From: Synechococcales cyanobacterium M55_K2018_004
Lineage (GTDB): Bacteria; Cyanobacteriota; Cyanobacteriia; Elainellales; Elainellaceae
Reading direction: 5' to 3'
DNA: 64,000 nt
NCBI GenBank assembly: GCA_015295905.1
Contig: DVEB01000303.1
Span: 2,043-66,042 of the forward strand
In this document: in pieces, positions 3,361 to 59,013 of the stretch
Position numbering within the stretch: the first letter of the stretch is position 1
Layout: every line of letters begins with the position of its first letter
Position numbers and translations under genes: made by a program
The notes under the pieces: model-generated
The model's database searches: none
What the model saw: only the letters and a program-made list of their open reading frames with translations
Told to the model about the DNA's origin: nothing

Positions 3361-3365
3361 TTTAT

Positions 3366-3400
3366 CATATTCACATTCATTGGCCATATTCACATTCATT
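3366..3400 (+). repeat. 16-bp perfect direct repeat catattcacattcatt x2 (3366-3381, 3385-3400) abutting the start codon at 3406
   Basis: Read directly from the sequence. The period is 19 bp and a third partial unit (cattcac) follows. Confidence 0.9.
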
Positions 3401-3405
3401 CACCC

Positions 3406-19898: not shown

Positions 19899-20288
19899 AT
19901 GACCGATCTGCACTTAAAGAACACCATTACTCAATTAGAAGCGCGGACTGAACAATTATTACAGCAGTTCAAACAAGAGATGATGCCGGAACTGACGACT
20001 ATTGCCATGCAAGAAGCAGCCTGGGAGAAAAAACGGCTAACCAGTGGGTTGATGATGCTCTCCATTGGTGGGGGGCTAATGGCTATGGTTGGCCTGCTCT
20101 CCCATGCAATTTTGCTGCCGCACAGGAATTTGAATCATAAATTCTGCTCCTTGGTTCGGAGACGAGACACATATCAGTTTGCCTCGGTGCTTTTCTGTAA
20201 TAATTTGATGGCTGATGGACATGCCAATTCCCGTCCCTTTCCCCATGGGTTTGGTGGTGAAGAAGGGATCAAAAATTCGCGATTGTAA
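19899..20288 (+). CDS. Possible small coiled-coil plus single-TM protein whose 3' third overlaps the convergent kinase gene
   Basis: MTDLHLKNTITQLEARTEQLLQQFKQEMMPELT...LTSGLMMLSIGGGLMAMVGLLSHAILL looks protein-like. The frame has no stop until 20288, which is 213 nt inside the opposite-strand CDS. Confidence 0.3.
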   Translation: MTDLHLKNTITQLEARTEQLLQQFKQEMMPELTTIAMQEAAWEKKRLTSGLMMLSIGGGLMAMVGLLSHAILLPHRNLNHKFCSLVRRRDTYQFASVLFCNNLMADGHANSRPFPHGFGGEEGIKNSRL

Positions 20289-21413
20289 GTCTAGGGGAAT
20301 GCCGGGGCCGTTATCAGCGATCGCAATTTGTATCCACTCATCATCAATCATTGTCGTCCGAATCGTGATCTGACCAAGGTGCTGCTGACGCTCTTGAGCA
20401 CTGCAATGGGTGTGTAGTTCTTCTAGTGCATCGATCGCATTGGCCAGAATATTCATAAAAACCTGGTTCATTGATCCAGCATGGCATTCCACCAAGGGAA
20501 GTTGGCCATAGTCTCGGATGACCTGAATTTCTGGATATTCAGGCTTACCTTTGAGGCGGTGTTGCAGAATCAACAATGTACTATCAAGGCCTTCGTGGAT
20601 ATCGACAATGCTGTAGCCTGCCTCATCTGACCGAGAAAAGTTCCGCAGCGATCGCACAATTTCGTAGATCCGCTGAGTCCCAACTTTCATAGACGCGAGA
20701 GTCTTGGGTAGATCGTCCTGAATGAAGTCAAGATCCAGATCAGCCGCAGCTTGCTGCAACTCTGGTGCAGCATTGGCCCGGTGCCGCTGAAACAACTCGA
20801 CAAACGACAGGAGATCTGTGGCGTATCCCTGCACATGGGTGAGATTACCATGAATAAAATTAACGGGATTGTTAATCTCATGGGCCACCCCCGCTACTAG
20901 CTGACCCAGGGTTGCCAGTTTCTCAGATTGCACGATCTGCATCTGAGATTGCTGTAACTGGAGCAGCGTCTCTTTTAGCTCAGTAGTGCGTTGCTCAACC
21001 TGCTGCTCTAGAGTTTGGCTGAAGTGGCGCAGTTTCAGTTGAGTCGTCACACGGGCTAACAGTTCAGCCGTCTGAAAGGGTTTAGTAATGTAATCGACAG
21101 CGCCTAAGGTAAAGCCTCTCACCTTATCGGTTGTGTCAGACAGAGCAGTCATAAAGATGACAGGAATGTCGTCTGTAGTCGCTGATGCTTTAAGCTGGCG
21201 ACAAGTCTCAAAGCCATCAATCCCTGGCATCATCACATCCAACAAAATCAGGTCAGGCTGGCTGAGGTTGGCCTGTTTGATCGCCCGTTCGCCATCAGTG
21301 GCGATCGCCACTTCATACCCCGCATCACTCAACACCTCTGCAACCACCTCTAAATTCGCAGGCGTGTCATCCACCACCAAAATCAACGGTACATGCTTCA
21401 TCACCAACCTCAC
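20076..21413 (-). CDS. Hybrid response-regulator / histidine kinase (N-terminal REC, then HisKA-like and HATPase_c)
   Basis: REC: [18 protein letters not shown]...[21 protein letters not shown]...IFMTAL. H-box [23 protein letters not shown]. ATPase: DNGPGI and [14 protein letters not shown]. Its ATG abuts the stop of the upstream kinase (21413/21414). Confidence 0.9.
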   Translation of the reverse strand: [445 protein letters not shown]

Positions 21414-23996
21414 TTAGACACACGGCACGACGTTATTCAACCACTGCTGGATCAGTGTTTCTAATTGCTCAACTTGAAATCCCTGACTCAATTCCACAAG
21501 TTCTTGAACAAGGGGCCTGTACTGAGGGTTTTGTTGTTGTAGCGCGATCGCCATCTCCTGTAACTTCTTTAATCTTCCCTGTTGTGCCAACTGCAGGAAC
21601 AGTTGTAGGTCTTCCTTAGGGGGGAGGGTCAGGGCAGTGATTGTTGTCGTGTGATGAGACTGACCCCTAGAAGCGATCTGAGACTGCACCTCCGTCACAC
21701 TTTGAGACTGGTAGATCCAGGTAATTTGCAAGTGATTGCGGATCATCTGGAACAGGTCATCAGCCTGAACTGGTTTTGCCAGAAAATCGTCTCCCCCCGC
21801 TTCCAGACTTTGCTGCTGATCCATCGTAGATACTGATGCAGAAGACACAATCGTAGGAATTGATTGAAGCTGTTCAGACTGACGAATTTTTTGCAGGAAC
21901 TGATATCCATCCATCACAGGCATAAGAACATCGGTGATGATCAGATCAGGCCTGATCTGCATCGCTTTATTCAATCCATCCTGTCCATCCTCTGCTTCAA
22001 TCACTGAAAAGCCTAGCGGTTCTAATAAGTTGACGACCACTGAGCGGTTTTCCCACTTATCATCTACCACTAAAATCGTCTGACGCTTACCTTGATATCC
22101 AATCACTTGCTCTCCGGTCACACGACTACTGTGTATTTGCCATTCTGTAGAAATTGGCAGATCTACATCAAAGAAAAAGGCGCTTCCGACGCCAGGTTGA
22201 CTCTGGACGTGAATCTTGCTACCCATCAGTACTGCTATGCTTTGACTGATTGCCAACCCTAACCCCGTTCCCTCCGAATTCCGCTTTGCGTCGCTGACCT
22301 GCTCAAACGGCTGAAAGATCTTTTCTAATACGTCAGCACTCATGCCGATGCCTGTGTCTTCAATATGAAAACGCAAACGGGTTGTTTGGAATTCAGCCGC
22401 AGTTTCTCGATCACAGGCCACTTCCTGCCTGGGCACCAAAGTGGTGGATGGAGATGGTCTGACCTTGATTACCTTAAAGATTACTGTCCCCTGCTCTGTA
22501 AACTTGACTGCATTGCCCAAAAGATTAATCAAGACTTGTCGCAGTCGTTTCTCATCCACCTCAACCATTTCAGGCAGATCTGCATCTGGGAGATAGACAA
22601 ACTCGATACCCTTCTGACTGGCGCGAATCTCCAAAATTTCAGCAATGCCCTGCAATAGCCCAGGTAGATGGACAGCATGAGGATCTAGCTCCATGCGCTG
22701 GGCTTCAATTTTAGAGATATCCAATACGTCATTAATCAGCGTTAACAGATGGGAGCCACACTGGTAAATGATGTCTACGCCTTTGCGTTCCTTCTCACCC
22801 CAACTCTGGGAGCGACTGAGGATCTGAGCATAACCCAGAATCCCATTGAGGGGAGTCCGCAATTCATGGCTCATATTCGCCAAAAACTCACTCTTGGCAC
22901 GACTGGCAACTTCAGCCATCTCTTTTGATTGCTTCAAAGCAGCGGTCCGTTCTTCAACTTTGAGTTCTAGCTCTTCGTTCACTCGCTCGAGTCGAGCCTT
23001 AACTTGTTCGCGTTCAATAATGACGGCGGAGAGAATCAGTGTCGTCACTGTGACCGTCCCAATAAATGCCTGCAACAGCAGTAAGGTTTCATTTAAGGTG
23101 TTGCGGTTAAAAGAGCTAGTACCACGAATGGCCCCAGCGATCGCCAGTGCGGCTACAAAGAAAAGGGCGATTGCAATATATCGCTGCGGAGCACGAAAGG
23201 CAGCCCAAACCAACAGCGGAATCAGCAGATATTCCACCGGGTAGCCAAAGCCGAAGGCCACCATCCCCACTGCCACTAGCAAGACAGTCCAGATGCCAAT
23301 TTCTACCATTGGTCGCAGCGATTGGGGGGCTGCGGGCCGTTGATCCAGCGGGGGGGGTGGCTGAGTTGCATGGCCTCGGTGAAACCAATCTTCCGCCCAA
23401 ATGATTAGGAGGGGGGCGACCACCAATACGCCAATCGCATCCCCCAACCAGAAGGTTAACCAGCTATTGAGGTAGTCCTCTCTGGGAATGAACCCACACA
23501 AGTACATGGTGGTTGCCCCGAACGTAGGACTCACCATGCAACTCAACAGTTCAATGCCGCTAAATTTCGCCACTTTGGGCGCACTGGTAAAAATTTGCTG
23601 CACACCAATCCAGCGCTGGATTAGAGCAGCCCCAACCACAGCTTGCAGGACGGAACCTGTGGCAATCCCCAACCCCGAGGCGATCGCCATAGACAAAATG
23701 CCTGTGTTTGCCCACAGTGGCCATGCCGCCGCGACAAACGCCCCTAACCAAATGCCCCACCAGACGCGATATCCTGTCAACAAAATTGCCGCCAGCGCAA
23801 TTCCAGACGGAGGATAGACGGGGGTAATAAATCCCGGTGGAATAGCAAGGTATTGCCCTAGTTTGGCCGTCCCATAATAAATCAATGCAAGAGCGAAGAT
23901 GAGTAAAAGTAGATTGGTTTTCCGGGAAGAGGGTTGCGAATCCATACAATGGGATGACTCCAGGAATTGAAGGAACCGATCTTCATAGTTAGTCAT
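21414..23996 (-). CDS. MASE1-domain hybrid sensor histidine kinase with C-terminal REC and a helical tail
   Basis: MASE1-like membrane N-terminus ([21 protein letters not shown]). H-box [18 protein letters not shown]. ATPase: [16 protein letters not shown] and [15 protein letters not shown]: [14 protein letters not shown]...[21 protein letters not shown]. Confidence 0.9.
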
Positions 23997-24154: not shown

Positions 24155-24256
24155 TATAGCGCTACACCCATAGGGTAGAACAAAGCGTTTTGTGGGAATC
24201 CCCACTGTGCGGGAATTCCCACAAAACGCCCTTTACGTCATGAGCGCGTAGTGCCC
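24155..24256 (+). repeat. Family-2 MITE-like element
   Basis: tatagcgctacacccatagggtagaacaaagcGTTTTGTGGGAATcCCCactgtgcGGGAATTCCCACAAAACgccctttacgtcatgagcgcgtagtgcc. A second copy lies at 59925-60025, with similar ends and a central stem of about 15 bp. Confidence 0.8.
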
Positions 24257-24713
24257 TTTTTTGGGGCAACGCACTTGACATTGGCAGCTAGGGAGATGGT
24301 TTATTTTTCTCCGATCTCGCCTATTTTGAGTGGTGGATGGGCGATCGCTTTTTAACTGTCCGAAAGCTCACCACACTGCTGTCGGTAGCGTTCTCAAAGG
24401 ATCTCTGCATCTTCTGCCCTCTGACGCTCAGCCTCTGCTCTCTGACGCCCAGCCTCTGCGCGGTGTTGCTCCATCAGCGGTTTGGCAAGATGGCATTGTG
24501 AACAAACCATTTCTGCTTACACTAGTGTTGCGAACACTCAATTTAGTCATGCAGCATTTAGCAATGCAGGGGAATGGCAGTTGATGTGAAGCATCATTAT
24601 GCAATCGCCTTCAGTCAACAACTCTCCTCCCTTGGCTCCCTACAGTGATTCCTGTTTTAGGGAGATAGCCTTTGCGAGATGTTATAGGGTATTGCGTTCT
24701 CCAGGATGATTCG

Positions 24714-25916
24714 ATGAAGATTCTACATATTTGTGCGCTCGGAATTACTGCCAAAGGGCTGCTTAAGCCCCAAATTGATTATTTTCTGGCGCACCAACAC
24801 GATGTGCACATTGCTTGCTCCCCTGGATCAGAGGTCGAAACACTACGACAGCAAGGATACACTGTCCATGCCATACCAATTGAGCGTCGCATTGTCTCTA
24901 GCACCAATCTAGCCAGCGTCTTTCGCCTAGCAAAGCTGATGCGTGATCAGCAGTATGACATCATTCATGTCCATACGCCCATCGCTTCAGCCCTCGGTCG
25001 CCTTGCCGCCAAGTTAGCACATGCAAATGCCGTAGTCTATACTTCCCATGGGTTGCCCTTTCACGATCGCTCCTCTTTTCTAGAGTTTCGTCTATACGCA
25101 GCCGTAGAGAAGTTTTGCGGACTATTTACTGATTTATTTCTGTCACAAAATCACGAAGACTGCGAGACTGCCAAACGGCTAGGTCTCTGTCCCCCTGAAA
25201 AGATTGCATACTTGGGCAACGGCATTGATGTCGAAAGGTTTCATCGCGATCGCCTCGACCCAGCCCACCAGAACCAGTTGCGTCAGTCCCTTCAGATTCC
25301 ACCAAGCGCCAGTCTTATTATTGGTACGATTGGGCGGCTAACTTACAAGAAAGGGAGTGGATATCTGGTGGAAGCGGCAGCAAAACTACTGCCTGATTTT
25401 CCCCATCTCCATGTTGTGATCATTGGTGGTCAGGTAAGTGGTGACCCAGAACCTTTCCAAGTTCAATTGTTGCAAAGGATTCAAGAACTTGGCTTGGCGA
25501 ACCATGTTACCTTAACAGGCTATCGAGATGACATACCCGAACTCCTAGGACTATTAGACGTCTTCACATTACCTACCTTTACCCACGAAGGCTTGCCTCG
25601 TTCGATTCTGGAAGCCATGGGGATGGAGCTACCTGTTGTTGCGACTGATATTCGCGGGTGCCGAGAGGCAGTAGTTCATGGGCAAACAGGCTTAATTGTG
25701 CCGCCTCAGGATAGCGATCGTCTGGCCGACGCCCTAGGTCAGTTACTTGCGGATAGCAACTTGCGACGCGCCTATGGCAAGGCTGGTCGTCAACGGCTTG
25801 AGGCAGAGTATGATGAACGGTTTGTCTTCCGACGGTTGTCAGATTTCTATCAACAACTTTTGCAACCATCGGAAAGTCATACCCGTGTCGTTGGATCCGC
25901 CCTACAGCGTTCCTAA
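24714..25916 (+). CDS. GT4-family (GT-B) glycosyltransferase
   Basis: Start chosen at MKILHICALG (24714). E-x7-E region EGLPRSILEAMGMELPVVATDIRGCREAV, and GTIGRLTYKKG. Confidence 0.85.
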   Translation: MKILHICALGITAKGLLKPQIDYFLAHQHDVHIACSPGSEVETLRQQGYTVHAIPIERRIVSSTNLASVFRLAKLMRDQQYDIIHVHTPIASALGRLAAKLAHANAVVYTSHGLPFHDRSSFLEFRLYAAVEKFCGLFTDLFLSQNHEDCETAKRLGLCPPEKIAYLGNGIDVERFHRDRLDPAHQNQLRQSLQIPPSASLIIGTIGRLTYKKGSGYLVEAAAKLLPDFPHLHVVIIGGQVSGDPEPFQVQLLQRIQELGLANHVTLTGYRDDIPELLGLLDVFTLPTFTHEGLPRSILEAMGMELPVVATDIRGCREAVVHGQTGLIVPPQDSDRLADALGQLLADSNLRRAYGKAGRQRLEAEYDERFVFRRLSDFYQQLLQPSESHTRVVGSALQRS

Positions 25917-26590: not shown

Positions 26591-27244
26591 ATGAGTAGGC
26601 TCATGCAAAGACTAATTAAAGCGATCGCTGATCGGCTGTTTGCGGCAATTCTTCTCCTAATTTTTTCTCCTGTCATTTTGGTCGTGGCGATCGCAGTCTA
26701 CTACACGATGGGGGGCCCTGTATTTTTTACGCAACCTCGTCCAGGTAAAGATGGCCGCGTGTTTCAGTTCTACAAGTTTCGCTCTATGACAAATGAGCGC
26801 GACGCTAAGGGTAACTTGCTGCCAGATGAAAAGCGTATGACGGCCCTGGGATATTGGTTGCGTCAAACCAGCCTAGACGAATTACCCCAGTTATGGAATG
26901 TGCTCAAAGGGGACATGAGTTTTGTCGGACCTCGCCCCTTGCTGGTGGAATATCTGGACTACTACACCCCAGAGCAAGCAACCCGTCACAATGTGAAACC
27001 GGGAATTACTGGCTGGGCACAGACCAACGGGCGTCATAGTTTATCCTGGTCGGAGAAGCTAGCGCTGGATGTCTGGTACGTTAACCACTGGTCACTGGCG
27101 CTAGATCTGAAAATTTTGTTTAGGACAGTTGTCAAGGTGCTGAAGCGCGAAGGCATCGGCATAGCAGGTTGTAATGAAGAGTCTGAACGACAAATTGCTG
27201 CGATCAAGCGGGCCAAACAATTGGCTGCAGTACGCGATCGTTAG
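26591..27244 (+). CDS. Small monotopic phosphoglycosyl transferase (PglC/EpsL/WbaP-C-terminal type; Bac_transf) that would initiate repeat-unit assembly
   Basis: One N-terminal hydrophobic helix, then [24 protein letters not shown]...[23 protein letters not shown]...KPGITGWAQ. Confidence 0.9.
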
Positions 27245-27315
27245 TTGCTCTGCAGACTAGAAGATTCTGCTCTTCTTCACTGGCCACCGCTGCTCAAAGG
27301 AGTCAATATCCCTAC

Positions 27316-28416
27316 ATGAAGATTCAGGTGATTGATGCATCGAACCCCCTCTGGTCTGAGACCTTGGAGGAGACGCTGAGCCATGATTTTTATCATCTGC
27401 CAGACTATGCTGCATTAGAAGCTAGGTGGATAAAGGCTGTGCCAGAGGCTATTCGCATAGAACAAGGCGATCGCCTCTTTTTCCTACCCTACCTGTTGCG
27501 TCAGTGCAGTCCCTTGTTTGCAGAATCGCCCAGCGATGTCTTCGATGTCGTATCCCCCTACGGCTACCCAGGGGTGCTGATAAATGATGCAGCGGCCCAG
27601 GACGCAGAATTTCTCAACCAGTGTATGCAAGCCCTGCTCCAATTTTTTCGCGATCGCCACATTTGTTCGGCGTTTGTGCGGCTGCACCCTATCCTAAATC
27701 AGCAGTTCGCTGACCAGTACGAGGGTGAGGGATGCTCCTTCCACTCGGAGACTGTTTCTGTCGATTTAACCCTGCCTGCGGAGGAAATCTGGCGACAGAC
27801 GCGACCAGAACATCGCAACAAAATTAATAAGTGCAAGCGAGCGGGTTTTCAGGCGCAGGTCGTCCCTGTGGAAACTGGTCTGAAGTCCTTCACGGAGATC
27901 TATGCCGAGACCATGGATCGGGTAGGGGCATCCCAGTTTTACTACTTTGATGACGAGTATTTCCTGCAACTGGCGCAGGCATTGGGCGATCACCTTCACA
28001 TTTGCCAAGTCGAGTTGGACGGACAAGTTGCCTGTGCCGGGCTGTTCACAGAATGTTCGGGAATTGTGCAGTATCACCTGGGCGGCACCCGGAATACATT
28101 CCTAAAGCAGTCCCCCATGACCCTACTATTTGACTTTGTGCGTTCCTGGGCAAAGGAGCGTGGCAATACATCCTTCCACCTAGGTGGCGGGGTGGGAGGT
28201 GCCCAGGACAGCTTAATGCACTTCAAGACGGGGTTTTCTCACCAGCGGCAACGCTTGTTCCTCCTGCGGTTGGTCGTTGATTCGTCCATCTACCAATCTC
28301 TAGTGGAGCTGCGTGCCAAGGCGCTGAACACCTCCGCAGAGCAACTGCTAGACTCAACCTTTTTCCCTGCCTACCGTTCTCTTGATACAGAGGTGAGCAA
28401 AGCAACATGCAACTAA
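27316..28416 (+). CDS. FemAB-fold (tandem GNAT-like) acyl/aminoacyl-transferase, paralogue 1
   Basis: 366 aa, collinear with the 359-aa product of 32597-33676 (roughly half of the positions identical by eye). Shared blocks are FFLPYLLR, FDVVSPxGYxG, ICSAFxRLHPIxNQ, IVQYHLxGT, WAKERGN, HLGGGVGGAxDSLxHFKxGF and FFPAYRS. Size and context match FemAB-related proteins found in exopolysaccharide loci. Confidence 0.6.
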   Translation: MKIQVIDASNPLWSETLEETLSHDFYHLPDYAALEARWIKAVPEAIRIEQGDRLFFLPYLLRQCSPLFAESPSDVFDVVSPYGYPGVLINDAAAQDAEFLNQCMQALLQFFRDRHICSAFVRLHPILNQQFADQYEGEGCSFHSETVSVDLTLPAEEIWRQTRPEHRNKINKCKRAGFQAQVVPVETGLKSFTEIYAETMDRVGASQFYYFDDEYFLQLAQALGDHLHICQVELDGQVACAGLFTECSGIVQYHLGGTRNTFLKQSPMTLLFDFVRSWAKERGNTSFHLGGGVGGAQDSLMHFKTGFSHQRQRLFLLRLVVDSSIYQSLVELRAKALNTSAEQLLDSTFFPAYRSLDTEVSKATCN

Positions 28417-29942
28417 CTGCTATCGGGCACGCTGGTCTTCAGGTGAAAACAGACCAAGCGACTGTGTTGATTGATCCCTGGTTTTCACCGGAGGGGGCTT
28501 TTCTCGCCTCGTGGTTCCAGTATCCTGACAACCACCATCTCTTGCAGGAAGATATCCTGGAGCCAACTGCCATCGTGATTTCTCACGAGCACCTTGATCA
28601 CCTGGATCCATGGTTTCTTGCCCAGGTTCCTAAGCATATTCCCGTTGTGATTCCAGCCTACCCATCCCCAGTGCTGCGCAACAAAATTTTGAAGGCGGGC
28701 CACCGTCCCATCGTAGAGGCTTTGGCATGGAACTCGGTGAAGCTGGCAGATGATCTGGAAGTCTTCTTTGTGTCTGAAGAGTCGCCGATGAACCACGATG
28801 CTGCCATTGTAGTCATCGCCGATGGCAAAACGCTGGTTAACCTGAATGACGCACGCCTTTCACCGTCTCAGTTGCGCAGCATTCGCACAAAGATTGGCGG
28901 CACTGTAGATGTCGTTACATTGCAAGGAGCAGGAGCCTCGTGGTATCCCATGTGCTACGAGTATTCAGCAGCACAGAAACAGGACTTATCTCGCCGCAAA
29001 CGTCTGGCTAAACTAAACTACGTCGCTCGAGTCATCCGAATCTTAGAACCGATTACAGCAGTTCCCTTTGCTGGCCCCCCTTGTTTCCTTGATCCAGAAC
29101 TGGCCCAGTTTAACCGTGAAATGGAGGATGGCATCTTTCCTGATCCTGTTCAGGTAGCAGACTGGCTAGCAACCCAGAGAATTGTGCAGACGACAGTCTT
29201 ACTACCAGGCGATCGCTGGGATACAGTCAGTCAGAGCAAACAGGCTGATCCCACCTGGAGCAACTTCTCATTTGGCGATCGCACTGCTTACCTGGAGGCC
29301 TACGCTCAGCGCCGCGCCGCTGCCATTGCAGCTGTGTTCGATCGCTACCCAGAACCCACTGAGTCCCTCTGGGAAGCGTTTCGAGCCTATTTTCAACGGC
29401 TGCTGAAAATGAGTGCATACTTTAACGAAAAGATTGGTATGCGCGTCGGATTCGATATCGTTGGGCCGGGTGGCGGTCAGTGGACCGTTGATTTTAGACC
29501 TGGATTTGAAGACGTCTATCCGTACATAAGTGAGTGTAACTATCAATACCGCTTTGCATCGCGCTGGTTGCCGCCACTCCTAAGCGGGGAACTGCCCTGG
29601 GAAGATTTCTTCCTCTCCCTGCGATTTCAGGCGTCTCGCTCTCCCGACGTGTATAACGACCATTTGTTGGGAATCTTAAAGTTTGCCAGCATCGATGCGC
29701 TGGAAGCCGTTGAACAATACGAAAAATCTCTCGATGCTCGCGAACAAATGACCGTCCATTCTGAAGGGAAGAATTATCGTGTCCAGCGCCGCTGTCCCCA
29801 TGCAGGGGTAGACCTGCTAGAAGCTGGTGAAGTTTTGCCAGGGGGCATTCTCCGCTGCTTGGGACACCATTACGAATTCGACCTCGAAAGTGGCAAATGC
29901 ACCACTGGTAACTGCTCTGCGCTGAAAACTCAACGTCTCTAA
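28407..29942 (+). CDS. CMAH/NamH-like metallo-beta-lactamase-fold oxygenase with a C-terminal Rieske [2Fe-2S] domain
   Basis: MBL-type HxHxDH: ISHEHLDHLD. Several blocks are collinear with animal CMP-Neu5Ac hydroxylase as I recall it (detailed in findings). Rieske ligands CPH-x18-CLGH sit at residues 463-487 (nt 29793-29867). The start overlaps the upstream stop (ATGCAACTAA). Confidence 0.55.
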   Translation: MQLTAIGHAGLQVKTDQATVLIDPWFSPEGAFLASWFQYPDNHHLLQEDILEPTAIVISHEHLDHLDPWFLAQVPKHIPVVIPAYPSPVLRNKILKAGHRPIVEALAWNSVKLADDLEVFFVSEESPMNHDAAIVVIADGKTLVNLNDARLSPSQLRSIRTKIGGTVDVVTLQGAGASWYPMCYEYSAAQKQDLSRRKRLAKLNYVARVIRILEPITAVPFAGPPCFLDPELAQFNREMEDGIFPDPVQVADWLATQRIVQTTVLLPGDRWDTVSQSKQADPTWSNFSFGDRTAYLEAYAQRRAAAIAAVFDRYPEPTESLWEAFRAYFQRLLKMSAYFNEKIGMRVGFDIVGPGGGQWTVDFRPGFEDVYPYISECNYQYRFASRWLPPLLSGELPWEDFFLSLRFQASRSPDVYNDHLLGILKFASIDALEAVEQYEKSLDAREQMTVHSEGKNYRVQRRCPHAGVDLLEAGEVLPGGILRCLGHHYEFDLESGKCTTGNCSALKTQRL

Positions 29943-29950
29943 CTGCTGTT

Positions 29951-30676
29951 ATGTCTCCAAGTTCATCTCCCTCGCTTTCCGCCAATCCATCTCCCTGTAA
30001 GCCGTTTACCGATCTCAAGGCGATCGTCTTTGACCTAGACGACACGCTGTTTCCCGAGCACCAGTTTGTGTACAGCGGCTTTCATGCCGTGAGCGACTGG
30101 ATGCGAGACCATTACAACACTGCCAATTTTTTTGACGTCACTTGGCGATTGTTTCTCGAAGGCAAGCGCGGCACCATTTTTGACCAGGCATTAGCGGAGC
30201 TTCAAATTCCCTTTGATGCCGCTCTGATCCGCCAGCTAGTCCAGGTCTACCACAACCACACACCAAAACTGACTCTCCATGAAGATGCTCGCTGGGCTTT
30301 GGAGTATTTCCGATCTCAGAAGAAATTGGGATTAATCACCAATGGCTTTGTGACAACTCAGCAAAATAAAGTCAGAGCCTTGGGCATCGAGTCCTATTTT
30401 GATTTCATCCTGTATTGCGGTACACTGGAGCGAACCGATTGGAAACCTAGTCCAGTTCCTTACCAAAAATGGATGGAAGCGGTGGACTGTGAGGGAGAGA
30501 GCTGTGTCTACGTAGGAGACCACCCTCAAAAAGACTTTGTGGGTGCCCGACACTGGAACTGGAAGACAATTCGCATCTGTCGGGAAGATGGGGAGTATGG
30601 CAAGATGGTGGCGGACGTTGATGATGATGCGGATCTGAGTATCACGTCACTCTATGAACTGCAAAACATTTGCTAA
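29951..30676 (+). CDS. HAD-superfamily hydrolase/phosphatase
   Basis: Motif I IVFDLDDTLF (DxDxT), motif II GLITNG, motifs III/IV K...VYVGDHPQKDF. Confidence 0.8.
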   Translation: MSPSSSPSLSANPSPCKPFTDLKAIVFDLDDTLFPEHQFVYSGFHAVSDWMRDHYNTANFFDVTWRLFLEGKRGTIFDQALAELQIPFDAALIRQLVQVYHNHTPKLTLHEDARWALEYFRSQKKLGLITNGFVTTQQNKVRALGIESYFDFILYCGTLERTDWKPSPVPYQKWMEAVDCEGESCVYVGDHPQKDFVGARHWNWKTIRICREDGEYGKMVADVDDDADLSITSLYELQNIC

Positions 30677-30683
30677 GGGTGCT

Positions 30684-31814
30684 ATGCAAAAGCCAATTCT
30701 TCTCTCGCCCCCCCACTTGGGTGATGACGAACTGAAGTTTGTTCATGAAGCCTTTGCAGCCAACTGGATTGCTCCGGTTGGCCCGCATGTCGATGCCTTC
30801 GAGGCGGAGTTTTGTGAGCGAGTTGGCTGCGGTCATGCGGCAGCCGTTAGTTCTGGGACGGCAGCACTGCACCTAGCGCTTCGGTTGGTCGGTATTGAAG
30901 CAGGCGATGAGGTGCTGTGTTCCACGCTGACGTTTATTGCCACTGCCAATCCCATCACCTACCTGGGGGCTAAGCCCGTCTTTGTGGATAGCGATCGCCA
31001 CTCCTGGAACATGGATCCCCACCTGTTGCAGGAAGCTCTGGAAGCACGCGCTCGTCAGGGAAAATTGCCCAAAGCCGTTGTGCTAGTCCACCTTTATGGG
31101 CAAAGTGCTGACATTGAACCGATTTTGAAAGCCTGTGAAACCTACGACATTCCCCTGGTTGAAGATGCAGCCGAGGCCCTAGGAGCAACCTACCAAGGAC
31201 GGTCACCCGGAACTTGGGGGCGCGTGGGAATCTACTCCTTCAATGGCAACAAAATTATCACCACCTCCGGCGGTGGTATGCTTGTCTCCGATGATAGCGA
31301 GCTGGTCGCTAAAGCACGCTTTCTAGCAACCCAAGCCCGCGACCCTGCTCCCCATTATCAGCACTCTGAAGTGGGCTATAACTATCGGCTCAGTAATGTG
31401 CTGGCGGGCATTGGTCGGGGACAACTGCGGGTTTTGAGCGATCGCATCGCTGCCCGACGACGGAATTTTGAAATTTACCACCAAGCCCTCAGCACCATAC
31501 CAGGGATTGAGTTTATGCCAGAGGCAGCCTACGGCACCGCAACCCGCTGGCTTACCTGCCTGACTATTGACCCGACCGCATTTGGCAAAGACCGGGAAGA
31601 GGTGCGTCTGGCCCTAGCAGAACAGCAAATCGAGGCACGTCCAGCCTGGAAACCCCTGCACTTGCAACCCGTTTTTGCCGATTGCGACTGTGTTGGTGGC
31701 GCCGTCTCAGAGGATATCTTCAAACGGGGATTGTGTTTACCGTCTGGCTCCAGCATGACAGATGACGACCTGCAACGTGTGATTGAAGCCATTGTCGCTG
31801 TTCATCGCCGTTAA
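30684..31814 (+). CDS. DegT/DnrJ/EryC1/StrS-family PLP-dependent sugar aminotransferase (PglE/EpsN-like)
   Basis: Start chosen at MQKPILLSPPHLGDDELKFVHEAFAANWIAPVGPHVDAFE (ATG 30684, 8 nt after the HAD stop). Also GTAALHLAL, SFNGNKIITTSGGGML (Schiff-base Lys region) and YNYRLSNVLAGIGRGQL. Confidence 0.85.
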   Translation: MQKPILLSPPHLGDDELKFVHEAFAANWIAPVGPHVDAFEAEFCERVGCGHAAAVSSGTAALHLALRLVGIEAGDEVLCSTLTFIATANPITYLGAKPVFVDSDRHSWNMDPHLLQEALEARARQGKLPKAVVLVHLYGQSADIEPILKACETYDIPLVEDAAEALGATYQGRSPGTWGRVGIYSFNGNKIITTSGGGMLVSDDSELVAKARFLATQARDPAPHYQHSEVGYNYRLSNVLAGIGRGQLRVLSDRIAARRRNFEIYHQALSTIPGIEFMPEAAYGTATRWLTCLTIDPTAFGKDREEVRLALAEQQIEARPAWKPLHLQPVFADCDCVGGAVSEDIFKRGLCLPSGSSMTDDDLQRVIEAIVAVHRR

Positions 31815-31912
31815 CTGAAACTTGTGCTTTTCACATGGTGCAGGTTGCAATGGCACAATACGCTACCGTAGTCTGTATCTAACTCAGAGCGCAGACGAAG
31901 TTGAGGGACTGC

Positions 31913-32512
31913 ATGAAACTCTATTTTGGCCGCAAGCTAAGGCTGCGTTGGCAACACCTTGCTCTCTTGGTGGGGACGGGTTCGCTGATCCTCACTAGTT
32001 TGATTACGCTACGCCTGCTAATGGCCAGTTTTCAGGCTCCCACGCCCCAGGCCCTCCTTGTGCTAGAAGGCAGCCCCGACCGTGTGCGGTTTGCAGCTAG
32101 CTTTGCCAGCAGTCACCCCAATCTCTCTATTGTTGTGTCAGGCAACCCAAGCGCCTTGGAGCGGAATCAGAGGTTTTTTCAAGAGGCCAATGTTTCGGCT
32201 CAACGGGTCGAGTATGATTTCTGTGCAACCGATACAGTCTCAAACTTTACCTGTACTGTAGATTGGTTTACAAATCGCGGCATTCATCATGTCTACTTAA
32301 CAACCTCAGATCATCATATGCAGCGATCGCGCACCATCGCTTTTCTGGTCTTTGGTAGTCGTGGCATTCTCACCACCCCACTGGCAGTACCTTCCGAAGG
32401 AAGAGAGCAAGAATCGTCGCTAGAGACCCTACGAGATGTGTTGCGCTCTGTTGTTTGGTTAGCCACGGGTTGGTCAAGCGCAAATTTGAACCCTGAACTC
32501 TGGGTTAATTAA
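31913..32512 (+). CDS. DUF218 / YdcF (ElyC/SanA-like) family protein with N-terminal TM helix
   Basis: LLVLEGSPDRVRFAA...IVVSG...DTVSNFTCTVDW...HVYLTTSDHHMQRS is the characteristic DUF218 pattern. The alternative TTG start is at 31901. Confidence 0.65.
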   Translation: MKLYFGRKLRLRWQHLALLVGTGSLILTSLITLRLLMASFQAPTPQALLVLEGSPDRVRFAASFASSHPNLSIVVSGNPSALERNQRFFQEANVSAQRVEYDFCATDTVSNFTCTVDWFTNRGIHHVYLTTSDHHMQRSRTIAFLVFGSRGILTTPLAVPSEGREQESSLETLRDVLRSVVWLATGWSSANLNPELWVN

Positions 32513-32596
32513 AAACCCGTGCAAAATTGCTGCGAGTTTTGCTGAATTTGACGAATCAAACTTCGTGCCAGTATTTGATTAGTATCATCAGCAATA

Positions 32597-33676
32597 TCAA
32601 ACTCTTAGCGGAGAACGATATGCAGGGAAGAAATTTGTCTCCACTAGTTGTTCAACCGACGTCCGCAACCCTTGCGCGTGTAGCTCAACTAGGCGGCGGT
32701 ACTCTTGAGGGTTTGTGATCAGCCGCAAGACTGGCAGTCGGCAGGTTAGAGGCGAAAAACCAGCCTTAAAGTGGAAAAGGCTATCTTTCGCTCCACCCAC
32801 ACCACCACCCAAGTGCATTACCTTATTACCCCGCTCCTTTGCCCAAAAACGAACATAGTCGTTGAGCAAAACACTGGGAGACTGCCTTACAAACTCAGTC
32901 TTTGTCCCACTTAAATGGTATTGAACAATTCCACAGCATTCCGTGTATAAAGCAACGCAAATCACCTGACCTTCGAGTTCAACAACACCCAAATGCAGAT
33001 GTTCACCTAACTCTTCTGCCAATTGATAGAAATAATCGTGGCCAAAGTAAAATGATTTTGCTGCTCCTACCCGATCCATGGTCTCCTCATAGATCGAGTT
33101 AAATACGTCAACATACCCTAGGAGGGATTGCATTTTTGTGACGTAGCCTTCCCGTTTTCGTTTTTTAATGACCTCGCGAAACCCGTGTCTAATTTGCTTT
33201 TGCATCTCTGTTTCAGAGGGCGTTAAGTCAATCATCACAGTTTCCACATTAGCAGTGCAAGCTTCTGAACTATAGATTTCATGGAACCCTTGATTAATAA
33301 TGGGATGAAGCCGCAGAAACGCAGAACAGATACGGCGATCGCCGAAGAACTGAATGATCTGCTCCATCGCCGCTGATATAAACTCTGGTTGCTCTAGAGC
33401 TGCCTGATTAAGCAGAATGCCAGCATAACCATTGGGAGATACTACATCAAACAGATCAGGAATTGCTTCGCCATCTGCCACATCATTGCAGTGTCGCAAT
33501 AGGTAAGGAAGAAAAAATATACAATCTCCTTCCTCCAGCAAAATTGCCTCCGGCGTAGCACCGCACCTCTTAGCTTCCAATGATACATACTGTGGCAAGT
33601 GGAAAATGTCATGACGCAGGGTTCGCACAGTTTCTACCCACAGCGGGTGAGCCGGTTCAAGAACTTGAAGCTTCAT
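32597..33676 (-). CDS. FemAB-fold acyl/aminoacyl-transferase, paralogue 2 (inverted relative to paralogue 1)
   Basis: See 27316-28416. MKLQVLEPAHPLWVETV...FFLPYLLRHC...IVQYHLSGT...HLGGGVGGAKDSLFHFKAGF...FFPAYRS. Confidence 0.6.
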   Translation of the reverse strand: MKLQVLEPAHPLWVETVRTLRHDIFHLPQYVSLEAKRCGATPEAILLEEGDCIFFLPYLLRHCNDVADGEAIPDLFDVVSPNGYAGILLNQAALEQPEFISAAMEQIIQFFGDRRICSAFLRLHPIINQGFHEIYSSEACTANVETVMIDLTPSETEMQKQIRHGFREVIKKRKREGYVTKMQSLLGYVDVFNSIYEETMDRVGAAKSFYFGHDYFYQLAEELGEHLHLGVVELEGQVICVALYTECCGIVQYHLSGTKTEFVRQSPSVLLNDYVRFWAKERGNKVMHLGGGVGGAKDSLFHFKAGFSPLTCRLPVLRLITNPQEYRRLVELHAQGLRTSVEQLVETNFFPAYRSPLRV

Positions 33677-33873
33677 GGTTTATTCCAGTACTGTTACAGC
33701 ATACGAGATCAGTGAACGGGATCCTGCACAGGATGTATGTACTCCTAACTAATCACCCTTGACCAACTGAGGCTTTTAGTTTGCTGCTGAACCTTCATAG
33801 ACATCAATTGTCGAATATCCGCACTTTTTCCCGTTCACTCTATAATACCGACTCCGTCGGTTATTGAGTCGGC

Positions 33874-33922
33874 TTGTTGTGGTGTAAAACGTGCGCTGCG
33901 CGCACGTTTTACACCACAACAA
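33874..33922. terminator. Perfect 23-bp stem / 3-nt loop hairpin downstream of the ATP-grasp gene
   Basis: TTGTTGTGGTGTAAAACGTGCGC tgc GCGCACGTTTTACACCACAACAA, 38 nt below the stop at 33960. There is no flanking U-tract, so it may be a REP/MITE-type hairpin rather than a classical terminator. Confidence 0.35.
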
Positions 33923-33959
33923 ACTGCTTACTTTACAGACGAATTCTGTATAAGACCGA

Positions 33960-35000
33960 TCAAATCTGGCTCAAGAAATCTCCACGATAAGAAAAGTCTC
34001 CTCGTTGAGCAGCGCTTTTAGCATCAATGGGGAAATACATTTCCTCCCAAAAGCGCAAGCAGATGCCCTCCTTCACAGTAGGCGGAGATAACCTTTCCCC
34101 TAGGACGAAATGGCGTACTGCCATTTCTGGCTCATTCAAACCAAACTGAGCACGCACACAAGTCGCACTGCTAAAGCGAGGATTCACTTCAAACACCTTG
34201 GGTCCATCTGGAGTTAGGCGCATTTGCACATTGGCTGGACCAAGCATCCCCAATGCGGCAGCAGCCTGAATTGCAGTTTTACATACCTCCGGATGTTGAA
34301 CACTTTCCATGCGATAACTTAAGCCCGCCATCAAACTACGCTTGAGTGATAGTGCTCCTGCAACATGACCATCGGTTTGGAAGAATAACCCAACAGTATA
34401 TTCTTGGTCATCCGGTAGCAACCGCTCCTGCATCACCGGATCGCGTAGATAGTTTCGGAAGAAATTGAATTCTTCATCATTATGAACCATCACGACACCT
34501 CGACTGCCAGAACTACAGCGGGCTTTCAGCAAGAAAGGATAGGAATGCTTTTGACGAAACGCTTCCAATTGTTCAGGGTCGGTCGGCAACGCTGTGTCAG
34601 GCACAGGTACACCAGCGGCGTGTAAGGCTTTATATGTCAACCACTTATCTAGTCCAACAAGAACACTGCTCGGGTTGAGGGGAGCGATCGCTCCAGAGCG
34701 CTGTTCAAACTCTGCCTTCCGCTCAGCTACCATGACTAGATCCCCTTCCCACCCTGACATGACAATCGCCGCATTCTCTTTGCGACAAACTTCGATCAGT
34801 GCCTCAAAATAAGGCTCTTTATTCTCCCCTCTAGCAGAAGGCAATAGATAGCCTTGATCCAACCGAAATAAGCCGACAGAGAGAGGTTCGGAATCCGTTC
34901 CAACAATTCTAATCGGCAGTTGAGAAGCCCGTAACGCCTTGGCAATTCCAAGTCCAACAGTAGACCCAGCACCGGTAACTACGACAGTGATTTGTTGCAT
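33960..35000 (-). CDS. ATP-grasp ligase (carbamoyl-phosphate-synthase-L-like / PylC-like)
   Basis: N-terminal Rossmann-like VVVTGAGSTVGLGIAKAL. The ATP-grasp core is KWLTYKALHAAGVPVP...YPFLLKARCSSGSRGV...QERLLP...EYTVGLF...NVQMRL...VFEVNPRFS. Confidence 0.75.
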   Translation of the reverse strand: MQQITVVVTGAGSTVGLGIAKALRASQLPIRIVGTDSEPLSVGLFRLDQGYLLPSARGENKEPYFEALIEVCRKENAAIVMSGWEGDLVMVAERKAEFEQRSGAIAPLNPSSVLVGLDKWLTYKALHAAGVPVPDTALPTDPEQLEAFRQKHSYPFLLKARCSSGSRGVVMVHNDEEFNFFRNYLRDPVMQERLLPDDQEYTVGLFFQTDGHVAGALSLKRSLMAGLSYRMESVQHPEVCKTAIQAAAALGMLGPANVQMRLTPDGPKVFEVNPRFSSATCVRAQFGLNEPEMAVRHFVLGERLSPPTVKEGICLRFWEEMYFPIDAKSAAQRGDFSYRGDFLSQI

Positions 35001-35203: not shown

Positions 35204-36484
35204 CTATAGGCTCCAGTAGTGAAGATTTGACGGCAGTGTTTTGGGATCTAGAACAGATTTCACATCCATAACCACTCCTCTCGCATGCACAGGACTCAGA
35301 AGGGTTTCCTGAGGCATATCTAGGTAGAAGCGATGGTTGACTGCCAGGATCAGCGCATCTAGATTGTGCAGGTCATTCCAACTCACTAGTTGGATACCGT
35401 ATTCTTTCTCAGCCTCCTTCTCATCTGCTAATGGATCATGAACAAACACCTGAACACCAAATTGCTGCAACTCCTGCACAATATCGGGGACACGACTATT
35501 GCGAAGATCGGGAACGTTTTCCTTAAAGGTCAATCCTAGAATTCCTACCCGTGCCCCTCGAATCGGTTGATCAGCTTTAACCAACAGCTTGACTAGGCGT
35601 TGCGCCAAATAAATCCCCATGTTGTCATTGATCCGACGCCCCGCAAGAATGACTTCAGGATGGTGACCAACCTCTTCCGCCTTTGCGGTTAAGTAATAGG
35701 GATCAACGCCGATACAGTGTCCACCTACCAGCCCTGGAGTAAAGGGCAGAAAGTTCCACTTGGTCCTTGCAGCCGCCAAAACGTCGTGAGTGCGGATGTT
35801 GAGTCGGTCACAAATCAAGGCCAGTTCATTCATCAGCGCAATGTTCACATCTCGCTGGGTGTTCTCAATTGCCTTGGCAGCTTCTGCAACTTTGATGGAA
35901 GGGGCACGGTGAACCCCAACATCAATAATAGCGCCATAGACACTAGCAACTCGTTCCAGAGTGTCTTGATCTTCTCCGGCAACGACTTTGACAATTCTTT
36001 CCAGAGTGTGGGCCTTGTCACCCGGATTAATACGCTCGGGGGAATATCCTAACTTAAAGTCAATACCCTGCTCTAAGCCAGAGACCCGCGCTAGGATAGG
36101 ACCGCAGAATTCCTCTGTGACTCCAGGATAAACGGTTGACTCATAGACCACGACAGAACCGGGGCGTAGAACTTTGCCAACCAATTCGGATGCTTTGGCT
36201 AGTAAGGTCAAATCTGGACGATGACTACGATCGATAGGAGTCGGTACAGCTACCACGAAGAAGTTCGCATCAACCAAGTCAGATAGATCGTAGGTCACCC
36301 TTAATCTAGAATTTAGTAATTCGTCGCTGGTCACTTCGCCAGTATGATCGATACCCTGTCGCAGGCTCTCGACCCGCTGAACACTGATGTCAAATCCGAT
36401 TGTGTTGGGGAACTTGCGGGCAAAGGCAATTGCCACAGGTAAGCCAACGTAGCCAAGACCAATCACTGCAATTTGTTCATTCAT
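35204..36484 (-). CDS. Nucleotide-sugar 6-dehydrogenase (TviB/WbpO/CapL-like, UDP-HexNAc to UDP-HexNAc-uronic acid type)
   Basis: IAVIGLGYVGLPVAIAFA (NAD fold), catalytic-Cys region GLVGGHCIGVDPYYL, and GLTFKENVPDLRNSRV. Confidence 0.85.
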   Translation of the reverse strand: MNEQIAVIGLGYVGLPVAIAFARKFPNTIGFDISVQRVESLRQGIDHTGEVTSDELLNSRLRVTYDLSDLVDANFFVVAVPTPIDRSHRPDLTLLAKASELVGKVLRPGSVVVYESTVYPGVTEEFCGPILARVSGLEQGIDFKLGYSPERINPGDKAHTLERIVKVVAGEDQDTLERVASVYGAIIDVGVHRAPSIKVAEAAKAIENTQRDVNIALMNELALICDRLNIRTHDVLAAARTKWNFLPFTPGLVGGHCIGVDPYYLTAKAEEVGHHPEVILAGRRINDNMGIYLAQRLVKLLVKADQPIRGARVGILGLTFKENVPDLRNSRVPDIVQELQQFGVQVFVHDPLADEKEAEKEYGIQLVSWNDLHNLDALILAVNHRFYLDMPQETLLSPVHARGVVMDVKSVLDPKTLPSNLHYWSL

Positions 36485-57748: not shown

Positions 57749-59013
57749 TGACTCGTAGTCCTCAAAAAACTTATCGATGCTTGAGTAGATGCAGCAATGT
57801 AGAGCCCCGTTGACCAAGAGAGACAGCCCGCCCTAAGCAGCGCTTCAATCCTGGGAAAATGTCTTCACCCTGAAACGTTATCCTGATGCGCTCACATTGC
57901 AAGCATTGATGAACCAACTGAGCTGTCAGGTGAGTCTATCTCTTTAGACAGAGACTGTTAGACAGAAAATGTTCACCACACAGTCCTCTCTGCAGGGATA
58001 CCACCTCGTGTTGCTCCGATGTCCACAGGTTATTTTTAATGTCTAAACATTGGTGATGCTTGACGCGCTATCTTCTTTGTACTGCTAGAAATCTTTCTCA
58101 GAACGCCAATTTGCCTGATTTTAGTCAATTTGCTCAATTTTGGACAATCTAATTTCCTAATTTTCAAAGAATTCAGATCTCCACACTTCAACAAAATGTT
58201 GAATTAAATTTTAATTTTCTTGAACTGAATCGTTGTAACGGTACTACGATTGCTCTGGCAATTGCATGGAACACGCTTAATAAAGTTGTTGAGTCAGTGG
58301 GATGAGCAGCATACAGCATGCTCATCCCTCCTATGCTCGACTAATGGGCACGCTGTACGCTGCCCATCCTCAGGGGTGTGGTTTGATTCCGTATATTTTC
58401 ATAGGGCCGAGGTAATAGGTTCAAAACTCCTGAAGTGCAATACTGAAGTGCATCAGGGAAACTCTTCTGGCAGCGTTGTTCGTGCCGCCGTTGATCATAG
58501 CCTATCATGCGTATCGTCTATCGGCACTTGAGATGATACTGACGCAAAGTAGCGGTGTAACGCTTATATTTCCAGGGATTCAGTGCATCGCAGCCGCACT
58601 TGGCGGTCAACATTTTTACAGTTGCTTTAATTACTGAGAATTTAAAGCCGCGGCACCAGCCATCCCTCTTTGTGAATCTTTCATGAATTCCAGTTAAACC
58701 AAGGCCAGTGTCACTGCCCTCTTGTGTCTTATCTAAAATTGCTCAAAGGCTTAGCCTGCATACTCTACAGCACTTGCATCAAAAAGCGGCTTTTGTATAG
58801 TCAATGTAAAGCTATGCTGTATCCGGATCATTAGTCCGATTATTTTTTCCCAGAGTAATTACTGAGGCCACTTTGAAGTTTCAATAAAGCCCCTAAGCGA
58901 GACGTTGACGCGCTTTGAGCAGATCTTTAGCATCGGAACCATAAGCATTTACCCACCAACAAATGGGGTAAAAAAATTAAGGATTCAGTTCATATATTTG
59001 GAGGAGGTTTGTG

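Follow-up and report, generated by a model that had tools for sequence, protein, structure and literature searches.

The exopolysaccharide (EPS) locus described here raises the question of how the 4-amine of a bacillosamine-type sugar is acylated when the gene set contains the dehydratase, aminotransferase and phosphoglycosyl transferase (PGT) of such a pathway but not its acetyltransferase. The locus lies at 24672-57817 of a 64,000-nucleotide stretch of DNA from Synechococcales cyanobacterium M55_K2018_004 (contig DVEB01000303.1, positions 2,043 to 66,042; hereafter the window), and Pfam and NCBIfam scans of its open reading frames (ORFs) identify it as a single Wzx/Wzy-type EPS locus with two convergent operons. 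An original prediction, made from the sequence alone, held that FemAB-fold, ATP-grasp, HAD and CMAH-like enzymes replace the canonical acetyltransferase. The reading we favour, to which we would give a probability of roughly 0.55, is that the cassette builds the initiating sugar of the EPS, a bacillosamine-type diamino-trideoxyhexose whose 4-nitrogen carries an amino-acid or short peptide-like acyl group instead of acetyl. The sugar would be a 2,4-diamino-2,4,6-trideoxyhexose, placed first in the repeat unit of the Wzx/Wzy polymer.

The genes named in the original prediction were found where it had placed them, or no more than a few codons away, with strong family matches, and the PglF/PglE/PglC-like triad is real, each member having a C. 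jejuni Pgl enzyme as its best match among solved structures in the PDB. For the membrane-anchored CapD/PglF-type UDP-N-acetylglucosamine (UDP-GlcNAc) 4,6-dehydratase (55712-57817, minus strand; Polysacc_synt_2, E = 3e-118, plus CoA_binding_3) this match is PglF (WlaL, 5bju, E = 6e-85). For the PglE/LegC-like DegT aminotransferase (30654-31814, plus strand; DegT_DnrJ_EryC1, E = 9e-102), which contains the pyridoxal-phosphate lysine motif SFNGNK, it is PglE (1o61/4ztc, E of about 1e-94). The small monotopic PGT (26591-27244, plus strand; Bac_transf, E = 3e-67) has an intact DE dyad (LDELPQ) and GPRPL motif, and its best match is the N,N'-diacetylbacillosamine-1-phosphate transferase PglC (8e37/8g1n, E = 1.5e-63), with WbaP at just 131 bits. 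Two other roles of the DegT protein were considered and rejected. Its score against the LegC-family model TIGR04181 (392 bits) is near but under the cut-off of 420, and a legionaminic acid product was set aside because the locus has no NeuB-type synthase or CMP-transferase and has a PglC-type PGT. A serinol-phosphate transaminase like Cj1437 was set aside because of the similarity to PglE and the conservation of the DegT gene in loci without ATP-grasp or phosphatase.

The fourth enzyme of the pathway, the left-handed beta-helix acetyltransferase PglD, was searched for in several ways. No ORF of at least 100 amino acids in the 64-kb window has a Hexapep or PglD_N Pfam match, and a scan of the window for hexapeptide runs gave no match. 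A tblastn search of the window with three left-handed beta-helix/PglD proteins of related loci (including L084 and L014) recovered only a PglD_N-like Rossmann piece within CapD, and the intergenic gaps hold just ORFs of at most 104 amino acids, none with a Pfam match. The absence, first claimed for 33 kb, therefore extends to the whole 64 kb.

The candidates for the missing step are two proteins here called Fem1 (27316-28416, plus strand), a FemX-fold double-GNAT protein, and Fem2 (32597-33676, minus strand), its diverged paralogue. Both match Pfam FemAB (35.5 and 37.5 bits, respectively, cut-off 24) and, above its cut-off, Acetyltransf_6. They are 54% identical over their full length, which confirms the two FemAB-fold proteins of the original prediction as paralogues; a third Acetyltransf_6 protein of the CelD/Fem superfamily (45788-47032, minus strand; PF13480, E = 7.5e-24), which had not been counted, is the sole other candidate acyltransferase of the locus and has no similarity to Fem1 detectable by BLASTP. 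The Fem family is large, with more than 2000 detectable members, mainly cyanobacterial, and the window is not alone in its pair of Fem genes, since 13 related loci have two as well.

An AlphaFold2 model of Fem1, built from 36 sequences (mean predicted local distance difference test score, pLDDT, 91.4), was compared with the PDB by Foldseek, and ranks 1 to 24 were all aminoacyl-tRNA-dependent transferases. They were W. viridescens FemX (7z6a, E = 1e-15, template modelling score, TM, 0.68/0.74), S. aureus FemA and FemX, Sba18/Sbb17 with the bound amino sugar streptothrisamine, and MprF/aaPGS, whereas tandem GNATs that use acetyl-CoA reached a TM of only 0.3-0.45. When Fem1 and Fem2 were searched against the PDB as single sequences, nothing matched, and FemX was reached only by the fold search and by the family profile (E = 7e-8). 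In the profile alignment, the invariant F303-K304 corresponds to the catalytic F304-K305 of W. viridescens FemX and Y253 to Y254, and the basic helix of Fem1 at residues 164-175 (PEHRNKINKCKRAG) aligns with FemX residues 168-180 (KTKSKIKRPFRDG). Fem2 retains the FK, Y and basic-helix motifs. The Q/RxxGxG/A loop that binds acetyl-CoA after strand 4 was not seen in either GNAT half of Fem1, judging from the sequence and the secondary structure of the model; together with the retained helix, this lends indirect support to a putative aminoacyl-tRNA donor. As the original prediction had supposed, Fem1 does not look like an ordinary acetyl-CoA-dependent GNAT, and the model favours a FemX-type transferase with aminoacyl-tRNA as its probable donor.

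An alternative is that Fem1 and Fem2 are N-acyltransferases dependent on acyl-CoA or acyl-ACP that act in the role of PglD, so that the product would be N,N'-diacetylbacillosamine or a simple N-acyl analogue, converted to the N-glycolyl form by the NamH-like oxygenase of the locus. The Acetyltransf_6 (GNAT) matches of both proteins are as strong as their FemAB matches, NCBI names the homologues 'GNAT family N-acetyltransferase', and a NamH-type hydroxylase requires an N-acetyl substrate. However, the 24 best fold matches, the retained Lys, Phe and Tyr of FemX with the basic helix, and the acetyl-CoA pyrophosphate loop that is not visible all speak against it, and tandem Fem paralogues are common, like those of stepwise Fem systems. 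We regard this alternative as unlikely, and gene order in related loci bears on it from both sides.

The comparison of loci drew on 80 genome loci selected around the oxygenase, a further 80 from metagenomes selected around Fem1, and several annotated contexts, and the window proteins were mapped onto them. Core genes were counted in 27 loci whose Fem protein is 46% or more identical and which extend 4 kb or more to both sides of it. Of the 27, 26 have PGT, 25 have DegT (71-80% identical) and 21 have Wzc, usually arranged as GT4-PGT-[variable]-Fem-(oxygenase)-DegT-Wzc. In 11 related loci (L004, L011, L052, L092 and L098 among them) a GT4 orthologue (57-67% identical) stands just upstream of PGT, DegT orthologues come after Fem or the NamH-like gene, and CapD adjoins the module in L049, L085, L159 and L169. 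The content of the variable slot differs among loci: it is PglD in Calothrix NIES-2098 (L084) and Dolichospermum (L014); a PhyH dioxygenase with Fem in L004, L009 and L054; a pair of Fem genes in the 13 loci mentioned above; ATP-grasp, Fem and HAD in the window, Elainella (L052) and Egbenema (L087); ATP-grasp, PHP and Fem in Aetokthonos (L007), Chlorogloeopsis (L088) and L094; and ATP-grasp with a metallophosphatase but no Fem in Pontibacter (L022). The whole set recurs in Anaeromyxobacter diazotrophicus as PHP-PGT-ATP-grasp, DegT-GT4 and Fem-like-CapD-Wzc, with identities to the window of 58% for DegT, 49% for PGT, 43% for ATP-grasp and 29% for Fem. The interval from PGT to DegT is a hot spot in which PglD, Fem, ATP-grasp plus phosphatase, PhyH and hydroxylase genes are shuffled, which would vary the N-acyl decoration.

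The original prediction asked whether the two Fem genes, oxygenase, HAD, DegT, DUF218 and ATP-grasp genes are conserved together as one block. They are not: the set falls apart into separable modules, namely a PGT-Fem-DegT core, an ATP-grasp plus phosphatase pair and an optional hydroxylase, the oxygenase being missing from most Fem-anchored loci. The DUF218 protein (31901-32512, plus strand; DUF218, E = 9e-8), the last gene of the plus-strand operon, is outside the core, since it occurs in 0 of the 27 well-flanked Fem loci and at the same position only in the short contig L120 (50% identity); a search with it against the PDB found no relative. Amazonocrinis nigriterrae scaffold12 (L005, L006) bears two copies of the GT4-PGT-Fem-oxygenase-DegT-Wzc block, inverted relative to each other and separated by about 27 kb as measured between the oxygenase genes; since synteny and identities are the same in both, the scaffold either has undergone a large inverted duplication or was misassembled.

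The replacement of the acetyltransferase by Fem is borne out in part. In Calothrix and Dolichospermum, PglD occupies the exact position of Fem1, immediately before the NamH-like gene, DegT and Wzc, as would be expected of functional equivalents, which also suits an acyl-CoA-dependent Fem1. However, in a clade of soil metagenomes (L132, L133, L139, L147, L151; for example L133 8524-11065) GT4 genes are followed by a conserved PglD-PhyH-Fem triad, near which DegT was not detected. The triad indicates that PglD and Fem can work jointly, in non-redundant roles, and this again counts against Fem as a substitute for PglD with the same chemistry. The PhyH dioxygenase is also a common partner of Fem in the cyanobacterial-type loci (11 of 27).

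If Fem1 aminoacylates the sugar, the ATP-grasp ligase (33960-35000, minus strand; NF009402, 278.7 bits, cut-off 218; Pfam ATP-grasp_3) and the HAD-family phosphatase (29951-30676, plus strand; HAD_2, E = 3e-22; DLDDT nucleophile motif at residues 28-32) may modify the product further. The AlphaFold2 model of the ligase (pLDDT 93.6) has generic Foldseek neighbours (2pn1, PurK, PylC and biotin carboxylases), and a search of the PDB with the HAD protein was uninformative. The linkage between the two is strict: a phosphatase lies within 5 kb of every window-type ATP-grasp (12 of 12), of the HAD type six times (the window counted), of the PHP type four times and a metallophosphatase twice. Among loci of at least 10 kb, a phosphatase is present in 8 of 8 with a window-type ATP-grasp and in 2 of 98 without ([[8,0],[2,96]], P-value = 1.5e-10, Fisher test), a comparison in which the loci are not phylogenetically independent, although the recruitment of three unrelated folds as phosphatases is. 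In the two loci with a phosphatase only, a more distant ATP-grasp adjoins the HAD gene. HAD orthologues with 51-61% identity stand beside an ATP-grasp in L052, L087, L099, L106 and P0272. This pairing with phosphatases of varying fold suggests ligation of a phosphorylated acid followed by dephosphorylation.

Two observations concern the phosphatases themselves. In two public assemblies (L001 and L002 11209-11784) the HAD gene start is called 50 codons downstream, which drops the DxDxT nucleophile motif, so that the 241-amino-acid form is plausible. In Caenispirillum salinarum AK4 (L170 9041-10279), a metallophosphatase fused to PglD_N and a hexapeptide acetyltransferase domain comes right after the ATP-grasp orthologue, in a locus that also has two DegT genes and a WbqC protein; the fusion suggests a ligase product with both a phosphate and a free amine.

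The same pair of enzymes could be assigned to another part of the polymer. The ATP-grasp and HAD proteins might amidate the carboxylate of GlcNAcA or GalNAcA (N-acetylglucosaminuronic or N-acetylgalactosaminuronic acid) with a phosphorylated amine such as ethanolamine phosphate or serinol phosphate and then dephosphorylate it, as in C. jejuni HS:2, leaving the 4-amino sugar untouched; the DegT protein might then make serinol phosphate as Cj1437 does. In the window, the ATP-grasp gene is immediately downstream of a TviB/WbpO-like UDP-GlcNAc 6-dehydrogenase (35204-36484, minus strand; TIGR03026, 382 bits; TviB model, 466 bits, below cut-off), the characterised C. jejuni set also consists of an ATP-dependent amidoligase, a HAD phosphatase and a DegT-type transaminase, and the pairing with a phosphatase suits a phosphorylated amine as well as a phosphorylated acid. 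However, the presence of ATP-grasp and that of the dehydrogenase are uncorrelated among loci, which counts against amidation of the C. jejuni type: ATP-grasp follows PGT, Fem and DegT rather than the dehydrogenase, it occurs without TviB in L007, L022, L052, L088 and L169 (within flanks of about 5-10 kb), and TviB occurs without it in L011, L092, L093 and L103. In Pontibacter and Anaeromyxobacter, ATP-grasp sits amid DegT and PGT genes with no uronic-acid gene in view. The closeness of the DegT protein to PglE, and its conservation at 71-80% where ATP-grasp or phosphatase is missing, point the same way. We consider uronic-acid amidation improbable, and the dehydrogenase probably supplies a separate uronic-acid residue, outside the tailoring module.

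The remaining tailoring enzyme is the oxygenase (28407-29942, plus strand; Pfam Lactamase_B_2, SCP2_Rv3818 and Rieske), which the original prediction had called CMAH-like. The MBL and Rieske domains are present with their metal motifs intact (HEHLDH at residue 60 and CPH-x18-CLGH at residue 463, both invariant in 20 homologues), but the domain order, with an N-terminal MBL/UlaG domain, SCP2_Rv3818 (29.5 bits, cut-off 28.2) and a C-terminal Rieske domain, is that of NamH and not that of animal CMAH, in which it is the opposite. NamH has been described with an N-terminal MBL/UlaG and a C-terminal Rieske domain (PMC10050696). Homologues 55-71% identical are found in Cyanobacteria, Gemmatimonadota, Actinomycetota, Bacteroidota and others, and in many of these lineages the gene adjoins PGT and/or DegT. 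It is a companion of PglD, Fem and ATP-grasp-like loci alike and is more than 60% identical to a likely NamH, both of which point to the 2-N-acetyl group as its target; domain and motif content suggest that it hydroxylates this group of a UDP-sugar to N-glycolyl.

Whether the oxygenase belongs to the EPS pathway at all can be questioned, because it might be a genuine NamH that acts on UDP-N-acetylmuramic acid (UDP-MurNAc) for peptidoglycan, or on UDP-GlcNAc generally, and be in the EPS operon by linkage only. Actinobacterial proteins in non-polysaccharide contexts are 62-64% identical to it; one of them (62%), in a metagenome-assembled genome (MAG) of Actinomycetota (L086 10001-11545), is flanked by Pup-ligase and proteasome genes, has no sugar genes in its vicinity and is probably a true UDP-MurNAc hydroxylase. 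The identity of 62% across phyla suggests recent horizontal transfer. The JGI orthology name of the homologues is 'UDP-MurNAc hydroxylase', and since the gene is missing from most Fem-DegT loci, the pathway runs without it. On the other side, the gene is translationally coupled in the operon, its start overlapping the Fem1 stop and the HAD gene starting 8 bp after it, and its place between the acyltransferase and DegT is fixed in Nostocales. Homologues also stand beside PGT in Gemmatimonadota, Acidobacteriota, Actinomycetota and a delta-proteobacterial MAG. N-glycolyl muramic acid is, to our knowledge, not known in cyanobacteria, which further counts against this explanation, and we think it very improbable.

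Taken in order, the preferred pathway with an aminoacylated sugar would run as follows. CapD/PglF, with the activity expected of its family, would dehydrate UDP-GlcNAc, and the PglE-like DegT protein would aminate C4 to give UDP-4-amino-4,6-dideoxy-HexNAc (N-acetylhexosamine). Fem1 would then transfer an aminoacyl group from aminoacyl-tRNA to the 4-amine of the sugar, a step suggested by its fold, its conserved catalytic residues and its fixed position between PGT and DegT. The new alpha-amine may be extended by Fem2, by the ATP-grasp ligase or by both, or Fem2 may serve a different acceptor. The ligase would form an amide using a phosphorylated acid, either phosphoglycerate or one of the phosphoserine, phosphothreonine or phosphohomoserine type, and its product would lose the phosphate to the HAD phosphatase. 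The NamH-like oxygenase would convert an N-acetyl to an N-glycolyl group, most likely the 2-N-acetyl common to all variants, and the PglC-like PGT would load the finished sugar-1-phosphate onto undecaprenyl phosphate and so start the repeat unit.

Several points weigh against this pathway. Its donors, acceptors, substrates and order of steps are all what we infer, and the observations beneath them are gene content, family and fold assignments, conservation of catalytic residues and linkage statistics. Fem1 and Fem2 fall far short of the cut-offs of the NCBIfam Fem equivalogs (FemX, 30.5 bits against 500; pepcterm_femAB, TIGR03019, 35.6 against 260), so the two belong to a distant Fem subfamily and their donor could differ. 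The homologues are named as N-acetyltransferases. No tRNA gene that could be a dedicated donor was found in the window, nor any Rfam element. The absence of PglD is a property of the 64-kb window, and a PglD gene may lie elsewhere in the genome. PglD and Fem coexist in the soil clade and in L095, L101 and L043, so Fem may act on another amine than that of PglD. The fold neighbours of the ligase give no clue to its substrate, its position directly after the dehydrogenase fits uronic-acid amidation, and the close relative of the oxygenase in the Pup-proteasome locus fits a role outside EPS.

The plus-strand operon contains, in order, GT4, PGT, Fem1, the MBL-SCP2_Rv3818-Rieske oxygenase, HAD, DegT and DUF218, beginning with the GT4 glycosyltransferase at 24672-25916 (Glycos_transf_1, E = 2e-36), and its genes are tightly packed, the HAD gene overlapping DegT. 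The original prediction had placed all the tailoring genes around the aminotransferase; they are present, but ATP-grasp and Fem2 close the opposite, convergent operon, following the TviB-like dehydrogenase. Farther upstream, the minus strand carries three GT4s, two methyltransferases, an epimerase, Wzy, the third Acetyltransf_6 protein, Wzx, a GINT1_N protein, Wzc, Wza and CapD/PglF. The GINT1_N match (glucosamine inositolphosphorylceramide transferase 1 N-terminal domain, E = 4e-45), in a 544-amino-acid protein (49023-50657, minus strand), is unusual for a bacterial EPS locus. Two signalling genes, a response-regulator/histidine-kinase gene and one for a MASE1 hybrid histidine kinase, lie immediately upstream of the locus (20076-23996, minus strand). 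The same kinase pair stands beside the PglD-oxygenase-DegT-Wzc block of Calothrix NIES-2098 (L084 16257-20040), and its retention beside both loci suggests a conserved regulatory link. A scan of the window for promoters and terminators gave signals no higher than shuffled controls; the strongest terminator-like site was a near-perfect hairpin with a 20-bp stem at 24184-24230, between the kinase gene and the first glycosyltransferase. Outside the locus, an ORF at 900-2048 (plus strand) encodes a MerR helix-turn-helix fused to a CbiC (precorrin-8X methylmutase) domain, and a 505-amino-acid ORF at 3265-4782 (plus strand) has zero Pfam matches.

Parts of this picture are already known. The bacillosamine-type framework, the use of an ATP-grasp protein in place of the acetyltransferase (PglB2) and the aminoacylation of amino sugars by Fem-type enzymes (Orf11/Sba18) all have precedents, so the claim of a pathway without characterised precedent stands for cyanobacteria, with no paper found in a literature search that links Fem enzymes to bacillosamine-type sugars or cyanobacterial EPS, and has to be narrowed elsewhere. 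The literature search likewise found no paper tying N-glycolyl to bacillosamine, and in 2017 N-glycolyl groups on bacterial nonulosonic acids had not been described, to the knowledge of the authors (PMC5378307).

A broader and more tentative reading, which we hold with less than even confidence, joins these elements. Fem-type aminoacyl-tRNA transferases, whose known roles so far are confined to peptidoglycan bridges, the aminoacylation of lipids and a few antibiotics, might be widespread decorators of polysaccharide sugars, which, with a second Fem, the ATP-grasp/phosphatase pair, PhyH and PglD caps, would build short non-ribosomal peptide-like chains on the bacillosamine-type 4-amine; the ATP-grasp/phosphatase pair would deliver a phospho-amino or phospho-hydroxy acid, and the NamH-like enzyme might contribute an N-glycolyl hexosamine, the first beyond muramic and sialic acids. 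Fem homologues number in the thousands and occur in most cyanobacterial orders, as well as in Myxococcota and soil bacteria. If this is true, translation-derived aminoacyl-tRNA feeds exopolysaccharide decoration in cyanobacteria and several other phyla, and Fem chemistry extends past cell walls, lipids and antibiotics. Amino-acid-acylated diamino sugars are known in many O-antigens, and a route to them would be explained. The genes that add acyl groups are little known, as has been stated for nonulosonic acids (PMC5378307). N-glycolylated EPS sugars would also be predicted, this ATP-grasp family would as a general rule use a phosphorylated substrate and need a phosphatase, and the hypervariable slot from PGT to DegT would offer a toolbox for glyco-engineering of the reducing-end sugar.

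Among characterised systems, several resemble single parts of the locus. FemX, FemA, FemB and MurM, together with Orf11/Sba18/Sbb17, VlmA, PacB and DhpH, have in common with the window Fem proteins the double-GNAT fold, the Lys/Phe pair, the Tyr and the basic helix, and Orf11/Sba18 of streptothricin-type antibiotics (PDB 9wqy) aminoacylate an amino sugar from aminoacyl-tRNA (PMC12945691). However, the identity of the window proteins to these enzymes is just 12-18%, and they are encoded in an EPS locus with DegT and PGT, not in a peptidoglycan or antibiotic context. The TIGR03019 family (FemAB, XrtA/PEP-CTERM) is also a Fem-superfamily protein of EPS loci and is the top NCBIfam match of Fem1 and Fem2, but the two are not members of it, since their scores (35.6 and 25.6 bits) are far under the 260-bit cut-off; no PEP-CTERM/XrtA system was seen in the window. 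Mycobacterial NamH (Rv3818), which hydroxylates UDP-MurNAc, has the same MBL/UlaG-SCP2_Rv3818-Rieske order and both metal motifs, whereas the window oxygenase is in a polysaccharide operon beside PGT and DegT, where its likely substrate is a UDP-HexNAc of the EPS pathway.

In C. jejuni HS:2, the ATP-dependent amidoligase Cj1438C takes a phosphorylated substrate, the HAD phosphatase Cj1435 follows it, and Cj1437 is the transaminase (PMC11800397). The logic of ligating a phosphorylated substrate and then dephosphorylating it is alike; there, however, a polymer-bound glucuronate carboxylate is joined to a phosphorylated amine, whereas the window ligase tracks amino-sugar genes. In Neisseria meningitidis, PglB2 is a PGT fused to an ATP-grasp domain and makes 4-glyceramido-2-acetamido-trideoxyhexose (GATDH) (PMC11130364, PMC6959607). 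It resembles the window in its bacillosamine-type pathway, in having ATP-grasp in the stead of the N4-acetyltransferase and in a 4-N-acyl group other than acetyl, but the window-type ATP-grasp is an independent protein with a phosphatase invariably at its side, and Fem-type transferases accompany it. The frame of the window pathway is that of C. jejuni PglF/PglE/PglD/PglC and B. subtilis EpsC-N-M-L, in which a dehydratase, an aminotransferase and a small PGT likewise serve an initiating sugar derived from UDP-GlcNAc; the window differs from both in that the PglD/EpsM hexapeptide acetyltransferase is missing and Fem, ATP-grasp, phosphatase and hydroxylase genes are inserted among the genes of the pathway.

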